This document shows, piece after piece, positions 2,194-16,783 of a stretch of DNA of 35,422 nt. The DNA is from Pseudomonadota bacterium. GTDB lineage: Bacteria > Pseudomonadota > Alphaproteobacteria > Geminicoccales > Geminicoccaceae. The stretch spans positions 1 to 35,422 of the forward strand of contig JBMCMJ010000001.1 of the NCBI GenBank assembly GCA_048615135.1, in the 5' to 3' direction. The notes beneath the pieces are model-generated. The model saw only the letters and a program-made list of their open reading frames with translations, made no database searches and had not been told where the DNA came from. The stretch's first letter is position 1. Every line of letters begins with the position of its first letter. A program made the position numbers and the translations under genes.

Positions 2194-2670
2194 ATGACAT
2201 CTGCTCTCGCCGTCCTTCGGGCCGCCGTCTTCCTGTCGCTGCTGGTCATCGCCCCGGCGCAGGCTTTGCAACCGCTGCCCGGCTGGGAGATCCGCGAGAC
2301 GCCGCACGACTACCCCACCCTGGTGACGCGCGTCGAAGCCGCCATCGAGGCGAGCCCGCTCGCCCTGGTGACGCGGGCGAGTGCCACCGTCGGGGCGCGG
2401 GCAATCGGTCGCGAAATCCCGGGCAACATGGTGATCGGGGTGTTCGCCCCGCCCTTCGCGGTGCGCATGCTGGAGGCGAGCGTGCAGGCCGGCATCGAGG
2501 CGCCGCTCCGGCTCTACGTGACCGAAAACGAGGACGGCACCGCGACCTTGAGCTGGCGCACCGCCAGCCACGTTTTTGCCCCCTACGACGACGGCGGCTC
2601 TGCCCTCGACGAGTTGGCGGTCGAACTGGACGGCCTGCTCCTGGCGATCGGTCGAGCGGCGATCGACTAG
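2194..2670 (+). CDS. Exported DUF302-domain protein
   Basis: Signal peptide MTSALAVLRAAVFLSLLVIAPAQA. The body (ASPLALVTRA...GNMVIGVFAPPFAVRMLE...LRLYVTENEDGTATLSW) matches the DUF302 pattern. Confidence 0.7.
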   Translation: MTSALAVLRAAVFLSLLVIAPAQALQPLPGWEIRETPHDYPTLVTRVEAAIEASPLALVTRASATVGARAIGREIPGNMVIGVFAPPFAVRMLEASVQAGIEAPLRLYVTENEDGTATLSWRTASHVFAPYDDGGSALDELAVELDGLLLAIGRAAID

Positions 2671-4019: not shown

Positions 4020-4055
4020 AAAAAAACGCGGACACCTTCGGGTGCCCGCGCTTTT
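4020..4055. terminator. Bidirectional intrinsic terminator between convergent genes
   Basis: A7 run (4020-4026). Stem CGCGGACACC (4027-4036), UUCG-type tetraloop TTCG (4037-4040), stem GGTGCCCGCG (4041-4050; 9 of 10 pairs). T4 run (4052-4055). Confidence 0.7.
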
Positions 4056-4078
4056 CGACGTCGACCGGGTGGCAGGCG

Positions 4079-4360
4079 TCAGCCGCCCTCGGCTTCACCC
4101 TCCGCCTCGGCCTCGCCTTCTCCCTCCGCTTCGGCCTCGGCCTCACCCTCGGCTTCCGCTTCGGCTTCTCCTTCGGCCTCGGCCTCACCCTCGGCTTCGG
4201 CTTCCGCCTGGGCCAACACGATGGTCTCGTCCGCATTAGCGGCCATCGCCGCCGGAACCGGGTTCGCCGCGACCGCCGCCACCATGAAGGGGGCGGAGTA
4301 AAGCAGGCCGCGCGACACCGATGCCAGCAACGAACGCCGCCGCTGCTCCAACTCGGACAT
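4079..4360 (-). CDS. Small (93 aa) twin-arginine-signal-like protein with a C-terminal strictly alternating (Ala/Gly)-Glu repeat tail (copy 1)
   Basis: Start at 4360 preceded by GGGAGGA. Sequence: MSELEQRRRSLLASVSRGLLYSAPFMVAAVAANPVPAAMA/ANADETIVLAQ + (A/G-E)x20 + GG. RRxLLA, a hydrophobic region and AMA give a Tat/Sec-type signal. The leader is conserved with 16535..16783 despite many synonymous codon differences. Confidence 0.75.
   Translation of the reverse strand: MSELEQRRRSLLASVSRGLLYSAPFMVAAVAANPVPAAMAANADETIVLAQAEAEAEGEAEAEGEAEAEAEGEAEAEAEGEGEAEAEGEAEGG
4082..4207 (-). repeat. Coding low-complexity repeat GAR-GCN/GGN (units GEAEAE / GEAEAEAE)
   Basis: The plus strand reads gcctcggcttc-type 6-nt periodic repeats. 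Translation on the minus strand is AEAEAEGEAEAEGEAEAEAEGEAEAEAEGEGEAEAEGEAEGG. Confidence 0.9.
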
Positions 4361-4536: not shown

Positions 4537-6918
4537 ATGACCGAGGCACCAACGACCGCCAAGCGGCGCTACTGGCTCGGCGGCAACCGCCACGACGCCC
4601 AGGACCGCTTCTTCCGCGAAGCCCTCGATCCCGCACTCTGGGAGCCGGGCGACGCGACGGCATGGGAGGCCTGCTGGTACACCGGCATGCCGAAGGCCGA
4701 GGCATTCGAGGCGCTCGACGGCCGGAAGTGGGCGAACCACATCCCCGGCAACAACGCCCTCACGGTGAAGAGCCGGCTGGCCGCCACCCTGGCCGCCACC
4801 CGCGATCGGTTGCTGGCCGACGAAGGGCCGGACGGTGAAGGGCCGCAGCGCATGGGCTTCTTTCCCGAAACCTTCGCCATGCCCCGGCACTATCACGCCT
4901 TCCAGGCGGCGGCCCTGGCCGAGCCGGAGGCGCGGTGGATCCTCAAGCCCAAGAACGCCTCCAAGGGCCGCGACATCCGGCTGGTCGAGGATCCGGCGAC
5001 CGTGCCGACCGGTGATCGCTGGATGGTGCAGCGCTATCTGCACGAACCGCACACCATTCGCGGGCACAAATACGTGCTGCGGCTCTACGTCCTGATCACG
5101 TCGGTCGAGCCGCTACGCGTCTATCTCTACCACGAGGGCTTCGCCAAGCTCGCCTCCGAGCCCTACGACCTGAACGACCCCTCGAACGTGTTCAGCCACC
5201 TGACCAACCCCGACATCAACGAGACCAACACGGCGGTCGCCTCGCCCGTGGTGTTCATCCCGTTCCGCGACTATCGCGCCTGGCTGCGCGACCAGGGCCA
5301 CGACGATGCGGCGCTGTTCGAGCGGGTCCACGATCTCGTGACGCTCACCGCGATCGCCGCCCGCGAGCCGCTCCGCCAACGCCTCGCCGAGGTCCAAGCC
5401 GACACGAGCGGCTGCTACGAACTGCTCGGCATCGACTGCCTGATCGACGCGCGGCTGAAGCCTTGGATCATGGAGTGCAACCTGAACCCGTCGCTCGACG
5501 TCTGTGCCGCACCCGAGGATGGCGGCGAGGTCGAGTTCGCCATCAAGCGCCAGCTCGTGCACGACCTCGTGGCGATGCTCGGATTGAACCAACCGCAGCC
5601 GGCGCATCCCGGCCTGGAGGGTGAGGCCCGGCTCGTCGCCGAGGCGGCGGCGGAGCTGGCCCATGCCGGCGGCTGGCAGCGGCTCTTGCCACACCCCGAA
5701 CCGGAGCGCCACCTGCCGTTCTTCACGGCCCCCCGGCTCGCCGACGTCGTCCTCGCCGATGCCGTCGCCGGGCGGCGGGTGCATCTGCCGACCTTTTGCC
5801 GGCACCGCGCGGCCGAGATCGTCGAGCCCGACCACCTGGCGCTCTACGCCGAGGACGAGGGCGTGCTCTATCACCCGAACCCGACCGCGACGTGGCTCTG
5901 GCTGCACGCGACGGCCGGGCTCGATCCCGACGATCTCGCCGAGCGGCTGGCGGCCGAACGGGGTGCCGGCGACGCCGCCACCCGCCGGGCGGTGCGCGCC
6001 GAGGTCTGGGCGCAATTGGCCGACTGGGCTGCCGCCGGCCTGATTCGGCAGACGCGCGGAACGGAGGTGCCGGCGCACGCGGCTGCACCTCGCCCGGCTC
6101 CGATCGAGACGACGCTGCACGTGGGCCTGGGCGATGCGACGGTCAGTCTGGGTCTGCGAAGCGCGCCCGTCGTCGCGCGTCTCGATGGCCTCTGGGCGCG
6201 CGCGTCCGTTGGCGCGGAGCCGGTGACGCACCTGGAGGTGATCGAGACCCGCCGCGGCTACGGCCTCGTCCAGGCCGGGCGGTCGATCGCCGACGACTTG
6301 GCGTTGGCGGAGGTGGCGCCGGCCATCGTCGCGGCCCTTCTGTCGACGGCAGCCCCCCACGGCACCCTCACCGGCGCGGTCCTCTGCCCGCCCTCCGCAA
6401 GCACGGGAATTCTCGTTGCCCCCGGCCCCGTCGAGGCGAGCGACGCTCCGGCGTTCGCCCTGGCCAGAGCCCTGAAGGCGGAACTTTCGGGCGGGCTCCG
6501 CCTGGACGCATTGCCGACCGACCCTTGCCGGCCCCTGGGGCTGCCCGCTCGGGTGCCGCTCGGTCACGCCGGGGTGCGTCACCGTCACCGTTGGCCCGAT
6601 GGCCGAGAGGCGGGGCTCGTGCCGACGCGGCCGGCGCCTGCGCTGCCCATCGCTGCGGTGCTCGTGCCGACGACGGACCTCGCGGCCGACGACGCTTCGC
6701 TCGTCCCGCTCTCACCGGCGCGCACCCTTGCGGCCCTCTTGCCCGGCTTGCGCGGGGCCGAGGGAGGCCGGCCGAGTGCCGCCGACGTCAGCCGGCTCCA
6801 CGCTTGGCTGGAGAGCCGGCCGGGCTTCGCCGTGCCCGCGGACCGGCCCGCGGCCGTGGCGGCGGCGCTCCACCTCTGGCTGCGTCGGGAGCCGACCGGG
6901 GAGAAGCTCGCCGGCTGA
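4537..6918 (+). CDS. Tubulin-tyrosine-ligase-like (TTL/TTLL family ATP-grasp) enzyme fused to a PqqD-like peptide-recognition segment and a P-loop-less HprK-like C-terminal segment
   Basis: ATG 4537 preceded by GGGGAGAG. Ordered TTL hallmarks: WANHIPGNNALTVKSRL, RWILKPKNASKGRDIRL, WMVQRYLHEP, HKYVLRLYVLITS, LRVYLYHEGFAKLA, FSHLTNPDIN, CYELLGIDCLIDARLKPWIMECNLNPSL. The C-terminal half is described under findings. Confidence 0.8.
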   Translation: MTEAPTTAKRRYWLGGNRHDAQDRFFREALDPALWEPGDATAWEACWYTGMPKAEAFEALDGRKWANHIPGNNALTVKSRLAATLAATRDRLLADEGPDGEGPQRMGFFPETFAMPRHYHAFQAAALAEPEARWILKPKNASKGRDIRLVEDPATVPTGDRWMVQRYLHEPHTIRGHKYVLRLYVLITSVEPLRVYLYHEGFAKLASEPYDLNDPSNVFSHLTNPDINETNTAVASPVVFIPFRDYRAWLRDQGHDDAALFERVHDLVTLTAIAAREPLRQRLAEVQADTSGCYELLGIDCLIDARLKPWIMECNLNPSLDVCAAPEDGGEVEFAIKRQLVHDLVAMLGLNQPQPAHPGLEGEARLVAEAAAELAHAGGWQRLLPHPEPERHLPFFTAPRLADVVLADAVAGRRVHLPTFCRHRAAEIVEPDHLALYAEDEGVLYHPNPTATWLWLHATAGLDPDDLAERLAAERGAGDAATRRAVRAEVWAQLADWAAAGLIRQTRGTEVPAHAAAPRPAPIETTLHVGLGDATVSLGLRSAPVVARLDGLWARASVGAEPVTHLEVIETRRGYGLVQAGRSIADDLALAEVAPAIVAALLSTAAPHGTLTGAVLCPPSASTGILVAPGPVEASDAPAFALARALKAELSGGLRLDALPTDPCRPLGLPARVPLGHAGVRHRHRWPDGREAGLVPTRPAPALPIAAVLVPTTDLAADDASLVPLSPARTLAALLPGLRGAEGGRPSAADVSRLHAWLESRPGFAVPADRPAAVAAALHLWLRREPTGEKLAG

Positions 6919-7059
6919 CGCGCCGGTCGCGGAGCGGTGATCGCCCGTGGGCCGATCGTCAGTGGGACATCCGGCGCGGCGCCGTACCCTCGGTGGTGTC
7001 CGGTCGCGGTACCCAAGCTCGCGTCGGCCGCTGCACCAACGAATGTCCGGAGAGCCACC

Positions 7060-7584
7060 ATGTCCTCGATCCGTCTCACCCGCCGCGGCGCCCTCGGGCT
7101 CGCCTCGGCGATCACCGTGCTCGCCACCGTGCCCGCCTTCGCGGATACCGCCACGCCGCACAACGTCGACGCGGCCGGACTGATGCTGCGCGGCTACGAC
7201 CCGGTCGCCTATTTCACCCTCGGCACGCCGACACCCGGCTCAACCGACATCACCGCCGAGCACGACGGGGCCACCTACCGCTTCGCCTCGAACGAGCACC
7301 GCGAGCTGTTCCTGGCCGACCCTGCCGCCTACGCGCCGGCCTATGGCGGATACTGCGCGCTCGGCGCGGCGATGGGGCGCAAGTTCGACGGCGATCCGGA
7401 GCTCTGGGCGGTGGTCGACGGGCGGCTGTTCGTCAACGTCAACGCCGGCGCCCAGCGGCGCTGGCAGTCCAACCCGGAAGGCTTCGTCACGACGGCCGAC
7501 CACAACTGGCCGCTGATCGAGGGGCTGGGCGACGGCACGCTCGAGACCAGCCCGCCCGCAGGGTTGCGCGTCGGCGCCAACTGA
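7060..7584 (+). CDS. Exported YHS-domain protein (Tat-like signal)
   Basis: Internal start MSSIRLTRRGALGLASAITVLATVPAFA. Pattern GYDPVAYF...ATYRFASNEHRELFLADPAAYAPAYGGYCA is typical of the YHS-domain family. Confidence 0.7.
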   Translation: MSSIRLTRRGALGLASAITVLATVPAFADTATPHNVDAAGLMLRGYDPVAYFTLGTPTPGSTDITAEHDGATYRFASNEHRELFLADPAAYAPAYGGYCALGAAMGRKFDGDPELWAVVDGRLFVNVNAGAQRRWQSNPEGFVTTADHNWPLIEGLGDGTLETSPPAGLRVGAN

Positions 7585-7651: not shown

Positions 7652-7771
7652 GGACGGTGGTGGCGCAGCCGGTCCTCGCCTCGGCGTGCCCGTCGCGCAC
7701 GGATTGGTGACTTGGCCGCGCACACCGGCCGATCGCATGATGGCCCCGGAGGACAGGGGACGAGGCGTGCG

Positions 7772-8305
7772 ATGAGCCAGGTGGTGCAGACGAACACGGA
7801 CGAGGTCGACCGGCTGCTCGCGCGCGTGGCCGCGCTGTTCGACGGTATCGTGCCGAACCTCTATCGCGTGCTGGCGCGCAATCCGGTGACGCTCCGCGCC
7901 TTCGTCGACCTCGAGACGGCGCTCGACACAGCCCCGGTCCTCGGCAACGGCGCGCACGCCCTGATCGCGCTGGAGGTCGCGGTGCGCGCGGGCTGCCGCT
8001 ATTGCGAGGGCGTGTTCGTCAAGGAGGCCGCCGCCGCCGGCATCGCCAAGGCCAGCGTCGATGCGGTGCGCCGTGGTGGACAACCGGCCGTGCCGGCCGA
8101 CGCGGTCGTGGTCGAGGCGACCCGCCGCCTGATCGAGAGCGACGGCCGGCTCGGCCACCTGGAGCGGGCGCGGTTCCGCGAGGCCGGCATCGGCCAGGCG
8201 GAGCTGCTGGAAATGCTCACGGTGATCGCGACCTACAGCCTGGCGACGCGCGCCAACAACCTGGCGCGTACCCGCATCGATCCGGAATACCGCCTCGACC
8301 CTTGA
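7772..8305 (+). CDS. AhpD-like / CMD family protein with CxxC
   Basis: Internal start MSQVVQTN. Motif VRAGCRYCEGV in a CMD-like helical context. Confidence 0.7.
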   Translation: MSQVVQTNTDEVDRLLARVAALFDGIVPNLYRVLARNPVTLRAFVDLETALDTAPVLGNGAHALIALEVAVRAGCRYCEGVFVKEAAAAGIAKASVDAVRRGGQPAVPADAVVVEATRRLIESDGRLGHLERARFREAGIGQAELLEMLTVIATYSLATRANNLARTRIDPEYRLDP

Positions 8306-15164: not shown

Positions 15165-16340
15165 CTATCCGACCTCGGCCGGCTCGTTGCGGAGGCCGAA
15201 ACGCGGCCGCAGGCGGACGCCGAGCCAAGCGCCCACGAGGGCCGCCGCCAGCCAGAGCCAGCCGTGCAGGCTGCCGCTCATCGTGCCGCCGAGAAAGGCG
15301 CCGATGTTGCAGCCATAGGCGAGCCTGGCGCCGTAGCCCATCAAGAGCCCGCCAAGCACGGCGGCCAGGGCGTGCCGCCAGGGGACGACCAGCGGGGGGT
15401 CGAAGCGACCGGCGAGGGACGAAGCGATCAACGCGCCGAGGATGACCCCGATATTCGTCACCGAGGTCGTGTTCTGCAGCGGACTGGCGTCGAGCGCCCC
15501 GCGCGCCCAGGCGGCGCTCCAGAACGGCACGCCCGAAAGGTCGCCGCCCAGGGCCTCGAAGAGCTGACCGCCCCAGAGCGCGAAGGCGAAGGTCACACCC
15601 CAGGGCTGGCCGGAGAGCCAGAAGACCGCGACCGCCAGCACGGCGAGCGCGCCCGCGGCCGCGAAGGGCGGCCACGGCCCGCGGAGGATGTCGCCCGTGG
15701 GGCTCGGGGCCGGCACCGGACGACGTTCGAGCCGGATGACGAGCACCGCCACCCCGCCGAGGATCGAGGCTTGCGCGAGCCAACCGCCGAGGATGCCGAA
15801 CTCGACGACGAGGCTGACTGCCGGCAGTTGCGGCAGCGTGCGCCACAGATGCAGGTGGAAGGTCGCCGCCAGCGAGCCGACGACGAACGCGGCGAGGGTC
15901 AGCAGCATCTTCGTGCTGCCGCCGCCGAGCGTGAAGAGCGTGCCGGACCCGCAGCCATTGGCGAGTTGCATGCCGACGCCGAAGAGAAAGGCGCCGACGA
16001 CCAGCTCCAGGGCCAAGGGCGCGACGGCACCACCGGCGGTGAACCCCGGCAACCAGCCGCCGATGAGCGGAAAGAAGGCGAGCGTGCCCAGCGCGACGAT
16101 CGCGAGTTGGATACGCACGCCCCTGCCCTCGCGATTCAGCAGCCACCGGCGCCAATAGGCAGTGAAGCCCAGCGCACCGTGGTAGAGCACCACGCCGAGG
16201 CCGGCGGCGACCAGCATGAGCAGCGCCTGCCGGGGCGCCACCGTCGCCCCGGTGATCGCCAGGAACAGGGCGAGCGCCGCGGTGCCGACGAGCATGGGTA
16301 GCGGTTGGACGGGGCGTCCCGGCTCGATCCTAGCGGCCAT
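15165..16340 (-). CDS. YeeE/YedE family sulfur-compound (thiosulfate-type) transporter
   Basis: Polytopic membrane protein with the two conserved Cys motifs QLANGCGSGTLF and ARLAYGCNIGAF. The start codon is uncertain. Confidence 0.85.
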   Translation of the reverse strand: MAARIEPGRPVQPLPMLVGTAALALFLAITGATVAPRQALLMLVAAGLGVVLYHGALGFTAYWRRWLLNREGRGVRIQLAIVALGTLAFFPLIGGWLPGFTAGGAVAPLALELVVGAFLFGVGMQLANGCGSGTLFTLGGGSTKMLLTLAAFVVGSLAATFHLHLWRTLPQLPAVSLVVEFGILGGWLAQASILGGVAVLVIRLERRPVPAPSPTGDILRGPWPPFAAAGALAVLAVAVFWLSGQPWGVTFAFALWGGQLFEALGGDLSGVPFWSAAWARGALDASPLQNTTSVTNIGVILGALIASSLAGRFDPPLVVPWRHALAAVLGGLLMGYGARLAYGCNIGAFLGGTMSGSLHGWLWLAAALVGAWLGVRLRPRFGLRNEPAEVG

Positions 16341-16534: not shown

Positions 16535-16783
16535 TCAGCGCGCCGCTTCGCCCTCGGCCTCCGCCTCGCCCTCCGCTTCGGCTTCCGCTTCACCCTCGGC
16601 CTCTGCCTCGCCTTCGGCCTCCGCCTCGGCTTCGGCGACGCTGCCGGTGCGGTCGATCCCGCCGGTAGTCGCCGCGGGCGTACATCCGGCGGCGACCACC
16701 GCCAGCATCAGGGGCGCCGCGTACAATAGCCCGCGTGACACCGTCGCCAGCAGCTGCCGCCTGTTCTGCTCGATCTCCGACAT
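16535..16783 (-). CDS. Small (82 aa) twin-arginine-signal-like lipoprotein with a C-terminal (Ala/Gly)-Glu repeat tail (copy 2)
   Basis: Start at 16783 preceded by GGGAGGGA. Sequence: MSEIEQNRRQLLATVSRGLLYAAPLMLAVVAAG/CTPAATTGGIDRTGSV + (A/G-E)x15 + AAR. 24 of 32 leader residues are identical to copy 1. Lipobox-like VAAGC (Cys codon 16682-16684). Confidence 0.75.
   Translation of the reverse strand: MSEIEQNRRQLLATVSRGLLYAAPLMLAVVAAGCTPAATTGGIDRTGSVAEAEAEAEGEAEAEGEAEAEAEGEAEAEGEAAR
16547..16636 (-). repeat. Coding low-complexity repeat GAR-GCN/GGN (units GEAEAE / GEAEAEAE)
   Basis: Minus-strand translation is AEAEAEAEGEAEAEGEAEAEAEGEAEAEGE. Same unit structure as 4082..4207. Confidence 0.9.

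Follow-up and report, generated by a model that had tools for sequence, protein, structure and literature searches.

The window considered here is the whole 35,422-nt stretch analysed (positions 1 to 35,422, forward strand, of contig JBMCMJ010000001.1, assembly GCA_048615135.1), from an alphaproteobacterium of the family Geminicoccaceae, with a G+C content of about 70%. It includes an open reading frame (ORF) at 4537..6918 (+) whose codon-position G+C pattern is typical of a real gene (third-position G+C, GC3, 0.89), encoding a 793-residue fusion protein: an N-terminal ligase domain of the tubulin tyrosine ligase (TTL) or TTL-like (TTLL) type, a recognition element (RRE) of the kind found in pathways for peptides that ribosomes synthesize and that are modified post-translationally (RiPPs), and a C-terminal domain predicted to have the fold of phosphoenolpyruvate (PEP) carboxykinase (PEPCK) and HprK, here apparently a pseudo-kinase. 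Divergent from it, at 4079..4360 (-), is a gene whose 93-residue product combines a conserved motif at its N-terminus with a hydrophobic stretch and an acidic (EA/EG)n tail; this product is proposed below as the substrate of the ligase. The evidence suggests that the two C-terminal domains of the fusion serve to recruit this substrate.

A search with the full-length protein found at least 438 homologues sharing its architecture, nearly all of them 790-850 residues long and aligned across 95-100% of the query. Their hosts are halophilic and alkaliphilic Gamma- and Alphaproteobacteria (Halomonas and relatives, Marinobacter, Alkalilimnicola, Aquisalimonas, Ectothiorhodospiraceae, Robiginitomaculum, Parvularculaceae, and Geminicoccaceae); the nearest relative, at 79% identity, is in an alphaproteobacterial metagenome-assembled genome from Great Salt Lake. 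Mean identity to the query varies strongly by region: 58% for the ligase (residues 1-400), 44% for the PqqD-like segment (425-503), 19% for a linker (504-524), and 27% for the last domain (525-785). The linker (6046..6108 (+)) is variable and Pro/Ala-rich, with insertions and deletions among homologues, and is the place where the predicted local distance difference test score (pLDDT) of the structural model described below drops to 63-74. The full-length query was needed to find the family: in a word-indexed homologue search the C-terminal half alone gave just one partial match.

Database names for family members include “amylase,” “tubulin polyglutamylase TTLL5,” and “PqqD family peptide modification chaperone.” The first of these, found in many NCBI and UniRef records, is without support from any domain and looks like a propagated misannotation. 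Two family members (P0121, 374 aa, and P0143, 378 aa) have a Met start right at the RRE and contain only this and the PEPCK-like domain; they may be stand-alone versions of the C-terminal half, or products of frameshifted or split genes. Two other short matches, P0125 and P0150, are clearly truncated ligase genes.

The ligase domain (4537..5736 (+), residues 1-400) matches PF03133 at residues 66-322 (E 2.7e-53, 181.6 bits; cut-off 20.1). Among PDB sequences the solved proteins nearest to it are TTLL6 (E 2.1e-36) and TTLL7 (E 1.5e-32), over about 330 residues; TTL proper is a far weaker match (E 1e-8 to 1e-10). The TTLL hallmark motifs WILKPKN, VQRYL, HLTNP, and ECNLNPS are all present in the query. 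Across the family K137, E313, and N315 are invariant, and the hallmark motifs, including ECNLxPS, are invariant or nearly so; because of this the ligase looks catalytically intact, as far as can be judged from sequence. TTLL6 and TTLL7 are both polyglutamylases acting on the acidic C-terminal tails of tubulin, which the Glu/Gly/Ala repeat tail of the proposed substrate resembles. The eukaryotic enzymes differ in recognising microtubules via cationic microtubule-binding domains, whereas here the RRE would read a distant N-terminal motif; in addition, the host here is a bacterium, and the proposed substrate is probably exported.

The region downstream of the ligase had been described, in an original prediction made from the window's sequence, as a PqqD-like RRE followed by an HprK-like segment with a destroyed P-loop, the fusion tethering the ligase to a leader-binding domain and a catalytically dead kinase-like scaffold, consistent with a leader-guided modification of the adjacent small protein. 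The two peptides quoted there are present as written in the translation of 4537..6918 (+) and where it had placed them, RHRAAEIVEP...AAGLIRQ at residues 422-506 and PHGTLTGAVLCPPSASTGILVAPGPVEASDAPAFALARAL at residues 607-646.

Its first component was borne out by both profile and structure comparisons. As an isolated 87-residue piece, the segment matches the PqqD model PF05402 over nearly the whole of its length (positions 4-67 of 67; 27.5 bits, E 4.1e-6, cut-off 23.4); within the full-length protein the score is 22.0 bits, just under the cut-off. Pfam PqqD matches were found in 57 of 58 full-length homologues, with a best E of 9.8e-9. NCBIfam gave weak matches only, to lasso-peptide PqqD and “HPr-rel-A system” PqqD models. 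An AlphaFold2 model of residues 422-793, built from a 119-sequence alignment of the family, has a mean pLDDT of 90.6; its RRE part (residues 425-499, pLDDT about 90-97) consists of three strands followed by three helices (in segment numbering, E4-8, E13-17, E22-24, H28-38, H43-53, and H59-78). By Foldseek, this superposes on the lasso-peptide B1 protein TbiB1 (5v1u) with a template modelling (TM) score of 0.83 on target length and a root-mean-square deviation (rmsd) of 1.8 Å; over the lasso B1 structures 5v1u/5v1v and 6jx3_B the TM scores are 0.76-0.84 and the rmsd values 1.6-2.9 Å. The matched B1 proteins are leader-binding proteins whose structures were crystallised with leaders. Residues 425-503 (5809..6045 (+)) are thus an RRE by both sequence and fold, with a lasso-B1-like winged helix.

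The last domain is a less straightforward case. A separate AlphaFold2 model of residues 506-793 has a pLDDT of 90.3 and a predicted TM score (pTM) of 0.86. All 50 of the matches listed in a Foldseek search of the PDB with this model are PEP carboxykinases (best E 2.6e-5, probability 1.00), with TM scores of 0.45-0.57 on query length, and the alignments of 324-374 columns for a 288-residue query take in about the whole domain. The two-domain model of residues 422-793 gave PEPCK matches as well. In the ECOD classification, the topology group of the PEPCK catalytic domain has just three families, of which HprK is one; HprK itself is marked by an extra antiparallel strand upstream of β1 and by a Walker B Asp at the β2 tip (PMC7758060). 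The secondary structure predicted by AlphaFold2 at residues 610-655 (strands at 610-617 and 624-627, a loop at 628-636, a helix at 637-646, and a strand at 649-655) fits the order of the HprK β(-1)-β1-loop-α1-β2 unit.

On the evidence of these models, residues 525-785 (6109..6891 (+)) are predicted to adopt the two-lobed fold of the PEPCK/HprK superfamily. With HprK and the HprK-related kinases the domain appears to share its ECOD topology group and, in the model, the strand-strand-loop-helix-strand order; it is likewise associated with a PqqD domain; it differs in lacking a hidden Markov model match, a Walker A motif, and a conserved β2 Asp, and in that the two-lobed PEPCKs, not HprK structures, were among the 50 Foldseek matches listed. 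The likeness to PEPCK (e.g., E. coli PckA) lies in its being the sole structural match among those 50, and in the combination of an N-terminal β-rich lobe with a lobe of the nucleotide-binding type. Here too there are differences: the domain is about half the size, at 8-12% identity, a TM score of about 0.5, and an rmsd of 6-11 Å, and it has no kinase-1a P-loop, PF01293 match, or hhalign signal. It is therefore best regarded as a pseudo-enzyme relative of the PEPCK/HprK fold group and not as a PEPCK. The safe label would be a “PEPCK/HprK-superfamily fold” pseudo-kinase, which in the models looks less like HprK than like a two-lobed PEPCK in miniature. Of the HprK-type scaffold originally proposed, what stands is that a domain shaped like a P-loop kinase follows the RRE; its fold match is to PEPCK rather than to HprK structures.

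At the sequence level no relationship to HprK could be detected, although at the level of fold the resemblance broadly holds. Residues 508-793 had no match at E ≤ 10 in Pfam or NCBIfam (including PF07475, TIGR04352, and TIGR04355), leaving the last 290 residues unannotated in both libraries, and profile scans of 58 full-length members and 29 C-terminal domain members likewise found no HprK or PEPCK family in any of them (PF07475, the HprK-related models, and PF01293 included). A phmmer search of PDB sequences with the domain returned nothing. A family profile against the same sequences gave only matches at E of about 0.4, in which the consensus avlvapadeaaddalAlalaralg was paired with the Walker A segment of RuvBL1. 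When a 119-member profile was compared with five HprK kinase domains by hhalign, the pairing of GILVAPGPVEASDAPAFALA with an HprK segment that had originally been made by eye was the best local alignment, with a P of 0.47 and a probability of 0.1%. (The HprK set is narrow: a search seeded with B. subtilis HprK gave close Bacillus-type HprKs only, and four HprK sequences from the PDB were added.) Because this best result is not significant, the HprK alignment originally made by eye is not evidence by itself, at least on sequence grounds. The corresponding comparison with E. coli PckA had a P of 0.58, likewise no signal. Across 1.84 billion representatives, phmmer found the domain essentially only in the same architecture or in fragments of it; P0121 and P0143 perhaps apart, there was no free-standing relative, and there was none bearing a P-loop.

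Since residues 508-793 have no significant sequence match in any library searched, it might be asked whether the resemblances described so far have arisen by chance, the C-terminal half being an unrelated or disordered extension. This can hardly be credited: it is already contradicted by the model, Foldseek, and PqqD results, with pLDDT values of about 90 for both models, Foldseek probabilities of 1.00 for both domains, PqqD detected in all but one of the 58 homologues, and an architecture kept in hundreds of proteins.

The position corresponding to Walker A is occupied by a strand-loop-helix at 6406..6474 (+) (residues 624-646, GILV-APGPVEASD-APAFALARAL), with a 9-residue loop. The weak, non-significant alignments to HprK and RuvBL1 described above both set this stretch against a Walker A segment. 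A Walker A motif (G....GK[ST]) is found in none of the 119 family members, anywhere in the sequence. In 107 of the 119 the β1-α1 loop is 9-10 residues long, a length like that of a P-loop; Asp, Ala, and Gly are abundant in it, and in 85 it ends in Asp (Asp636 here). The Asp expected at the β2 tip (position 657) is found in only 38. Since Walker A is missing in every member and the β2-tip Asp is not conserved, the domain cannot work as a P-loop kinase. As predicted, then, there is no P-loop; the implication of a recent loss does not hold, as no family member or relative with a P-loop was found, and from these sequences the loss would go back to the ancestor of the entire family.

Near-invariant positions in the domain (R548, G574, Y575, L590, L601, G668-L669-P670, and L754) are almost all Gly, Leu, or Pro, the exceptions being R548 and Y575. 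They are likely to be mostly structural, as would be expected for a scaffold. It is this, together with a conservation lower than that of the ligase (27% vs. 58%), that suggests a scaffold role.

Two other roles for the domain can be weighed against the same data. It might still be an enzyme (a kinase, a phosphorylase, or a PEP-utilising enzyme) that binds a nucleotide without a classical P-loop, making the whole protein a bifunctional ligase-kinase. Consistent with this are the PEPCK-like fold, the weak NCBIfam match of the RRE to the HPr-rel-A-system PqqD model, and the HprK-type kinases that accompany PqqD proteins in phosphorylated lasso-peptide clusters (PMC10368454). Against it, besides the absence of Walker A throughout the 119 members, are an acidic residue at the place of its Lys and Ser/Thr, the poor conservation of the β2 Asp, the lack of any invariant Lys, His, or Asp cluster, and the fact that no other folded part of the protein is so poorly conserved. 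A remaining enzymatic function seems very improbable.

The second role, unlikely but a good deal less so, is in oligomerisation or allostery: the domain might form a hexamer, as in HprK/P, or sense a metabolite in the former nucleotide cleft, leaving the RRE alone to recognise the substrate. HprK/P family members do oligomerise through this domain; the loop length is fixed at 9-10 residues, with its Asp kept in 85 of 119 members, and the near-invariant R548, G574-Y575, and G668-L669-P670 could mark a ligand site. The same numbers can be read in the other direction, however: all of the near-invariant positions except one Arg and one Tyr are Gly, Leu, or Pro, Asp636 is found in no more than those 85 sequences, and overall identity is low, at 27%.

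The putative substrate is the product of the 4079..4360 (-) gene, MSELEQRRRSLLASVSRGLLYSAPFMVAAVAANPVPAAMAANADETIVLAQ followed by (EA/EG) repeats and ending in EGG. A GGAGG Shine-Dalgarno sequence lies 6 nt 5′ of its ATG. About 20 nt past the stop codon, at 4021..4056 (-), RNA folding predicts a hairpin with a 16-bp stem and a GC-rich core (-34.2 kcal/mol, z -4.54), flanked by an A-run and a U-run and resembling an intrinsic terminator; it is likely a bidirectional one. A consensus terminator scan missed this hairpin and found nothing near the small gene.

Related loci, 81 in all, were collected by a genome-collection scan and contig look-ups. An equivalent small ORF is found beside the ligase gene in about 72 of them; in some it lies downstream and on the same strand, in others upstream in divergent orientation. 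Their products share the N-terminal motif LLxxLSRGxxYxxPx(L/M), with a Tyr-aligned consensus of d..rr.LL..LsRg..YtaP.la.Va.gaaf.a.a. Relative to the Tyr, Leu is found at -10 in 49 of 54 sequences, at -9 in 48, and at -6 in 48, and Arg or Lys at -4 in 53; none of these positions was required by the scan. The adjacent small protein is thus, as had been proposed, a conserved partner with a conserved N-terminal motif. Partner tails are of the (GEAE)n type, with a composition of 44% Glu, 27% Gly, and 22% Ala, and mostly end in -EG (-GN in Halomonas variants).

A few of the tails end instead in Gly-Tyr (GGY, SGY, DGY, AGY, GSY, or GTY), like tyrosinated α-tubulin; the loci are L001 (9245..9556), L038 (9114..9437), L046, L063, L067, and L076. 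Right before the repeats there is a second short element, a hydrophobic tri- or tetrapeptide plus Ala (e.g., PLMLAEA, YMMLAAGE, IVVAEAE, or VLMVAEGE; ETIVLAQAEAE in the window), which might be a site of processing or an element for ligase-proximal recognition. A motif scan of the window also found a second paralogue of the acidic-tail protein, at 16535..16783 (-): 82 residues, with LLxxVSRGLLYxAPLM, a lipobox-like VAAGC, and an (AEAEGE)n tail. It lies at a distance of about 10 kb from the ligase gene and next to a gene (15165..16340 (-)) for a polytopic membrane protein with GCGSG and GCN motifs, which we take to be YeeE/YedE-like.

The partner motif invites comparison with the lasso-peptide systems. 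YxxPxL is the portion of the lasso leader read by B1 RREs, and the partner here carries Y-x-x-P-x-(L/M), with conserved Leu residues ahead of it. The lasso B1 proteins (TbiB1, 5v1u/5v1v, and TfuB1, 6jx3) have the same β3-α3 winged-helix fold as the RRE here, and the YxxPxL motif is documented for lasso peptides (PMC10368454). There are several differences: this RRE is built into an enzyme of 800 residues, with an ATP-grasp ligase on one side and a pseudo-kinase domain on the other; a B2 protease and a C cyclase are both absent; and the segment bound seems to belong to an export signal, the “core” being an extended acidic repeat or, in some cases, a cytochrome c protein.

In the partner N-terminus a basic n-region is followed by about 20 hydrophobic residues and then by an Ala-x-Ala-type site or a lipobox (the lipobox-like VAAGC is found in the 16535..16783 (-) paralogue and in one L004 protein). 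From this make-up it looks like an export signal of the Sec/Tat or lipoprotein type. A Tat signal as a general rule was considered and rejected, as the twin Arg is not conserved (KRQ, REQ, RQQ, and RHT variants are found). In the Robiginitomaculum/Parvularculaceae clade, the partner is larger (234-271 residues), with the same N-terminal motif and Glu/Ala/Gly repeats with His and Lys, and ends in a SoxA/TsdA-type cytochrome c domain with CxxCH (PF21342, 37-40 bits; L009 4974..5774, L025 4875..5648, L049 4850..5665, and L052 2759..3463, all (-)), which implies that the repeats are periplasmic. The “leader peptide” claimed for the small protein needs qualifying: the N-terminal motif is conserved, but the segment that carries it is built like an export signal, and what follows includes, in one clade, a cytochrome c domain. 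Since the ligase is ATP-dependent and has no signal sequence, any modification of the partner must precede export.

Several kinds of genes recur near the ligase/partner pair: DUF302, DinB_2, CMD/AhpD-like, DoxX, YHS-domain, and DsrE/rhodanese proteins, an extracytoplasmic function (ECF) sigma factor with a zf-HC2 anti-sigma factor, and a SoxA/TsdA-like cytochrome c (in the window at 2194..2670, 6937..7584, and 7712..8305; also in L001, L084, and L085). This suggests a sulfur, redox, or metal stress context.

These neighbours bear on a further possibility, that the small acidic protein is not a substrate at all. The RRE might bind its export signal as a holdase or targeting chaperone, or bind some other peptide, while the TTL domain acts on a different target or makes a free peptide; adjacency would then reflect shared physiology. 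The export-signal-like N-terminus of the partner and the redox, sulfur, and metal genes shared among neighbourhoods (DUF302, DinB_2, CMD, DoxX, YHS, and the SoxA/TsdA-like cytochrome c) would both fit. It accounts less well for the tight linkage of the two genes in two proteobacterial classes and in both orientations, for a tail composition that mimics the tubulin tails modified by TTLL enzymes, or for the motif upstream of the hydrophobic stretch, whose conservation far exceeds that of ordinary signal peptides. On balance this seems quite unlikely.

The reading that we prefer, and consider probable, is that the C-terminal half of the fusion protein (about residues 425-785) is a non-catalytic substrate-recruitment module on an active TTLL-type ATP-grasp ligase. 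The RRE would dock the conserved N-terminal motif of the small protein, which resembles the lasso-leader YxxPxL, and would in doing so read part of an export signal. The PEPCK-like pseudo-kinase domain might act as a rigid spacer or scaffold, and may also offer a second surface for binding peptides or serve in oligomerisation. The acidic tail, thus tethered and resembling that of tubulin, would be presented to the TTLL-like active site for ATP-dependent ligation of amino acids, most likely glutamylation of Glu side chains. Docking and modification would probably both take place in the cytoplasm, followed by export to the periplasm.

A number of observations weigh against this proposal. The likeness to TbiB1 is to be expected of any RRE, and is no indication that the same motif is read. 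The scan for partners demanded both Tyr and Pro, so that their invariance is partly by construction, and in three loci (L003, L046, and L076) the Tyr is replaced by Cys, Phe, or His. No partner ORF was found at 9 of the 81 loci, and in Alkalilimnicola a DoxX gene lies between the ligase and partner genes. An export-type N-terminus leaves a cytoplasmic enzyme only a short cytoplasmic window in which to act, and branched side chains might hinder Sec export. Finally, solved HprK structures, which are present in the Foldseek library, are absent from the 50 matches listed for the C-terminal domain.

There are parallels for the arrangement as a whole. Graspetides (including microviridins) and the C-terminal ligases RimK and the peptide aminoacyl-tRNA ligases (PEARLs) all involve ATP- or aminoacyl-dependent ligases acting, leader-guided, on a ribosomal peptide encoded beside the enzyme. 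Graspetide ligases make intramolecular esters or amides, and PEARLs use aminoacyl-tRNA and have a LanB-like fold. To our knowledge graspetide ligases use no PqqD RRE and RimK has no RRE, and we know of none of these enzymes with a TTLL-type domain or a PEPCK-like pseudo-kinase. The module described here would work in the manner of RiPP enzymes guided by an RRE, and should the model hold, this would be the first case known to us of a PqqD-type RRE directing a TTL/TTLL-family ligase. A literature search, the RRE-Finder paper included, found no description of the TTL-RRE fusion or of its acidic-repeat partners, though they may be mentioned in the study of bacterial TTL-like amidoligases by Iyer et al. 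(2009).

Of the features by which RiPP clusters are recognised, a precursor-like ORF and an RRE-bearing enzyme are both present at the locus. No dedicated protease or transporter is conserved near the gene pair in the neighbourhoods examined. Because of this, and because a full cytochrome c protein can be the substrate, what we have here looks more like leader-guided modification of an exported protein than like a classical RiPP natural-product pathway.

In its widest form the proposal is of a system resembling the tubulin code in halophilic and alkaliphilic Proteobacteria, with a TTLL-type polyglutamylase, an RRE that reads an export-signal motif, a fossil PEPCK/HprK scaffold, and Glu-Gly-Ala tails decorated before export, which may be near the bacterial ancestor of the eukaryotic tubulin glutamylases. 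It would be a pathway of protein modification in which the leader-recognition logic of RiPPs is borrowed. This is put forward tentatively, with less confidence than the recruitment role itself. If the recruitment model holds, it would clearly exemplify how the fold of a P-loop kinase can be recycled, in peptide modification, as a non-catalytic scaffold. The system would also provide a bacterial TTLL homologue, from a family of which hundreds of database entries now carry the names “amylase” or “tubulin polyglutamylase TTLL5,” with a recognition mechanism and a genetically linked, tubulin-tail-like candidate substrate, making the bacterial origin and the ancestral substrate recognition of the tubulin polyglutamylases directly testable. 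For the bacteria themselves, the apparent overlap of leader and export signal suggests that exported proteins pass a modification checkpoint in the cytoplasm.

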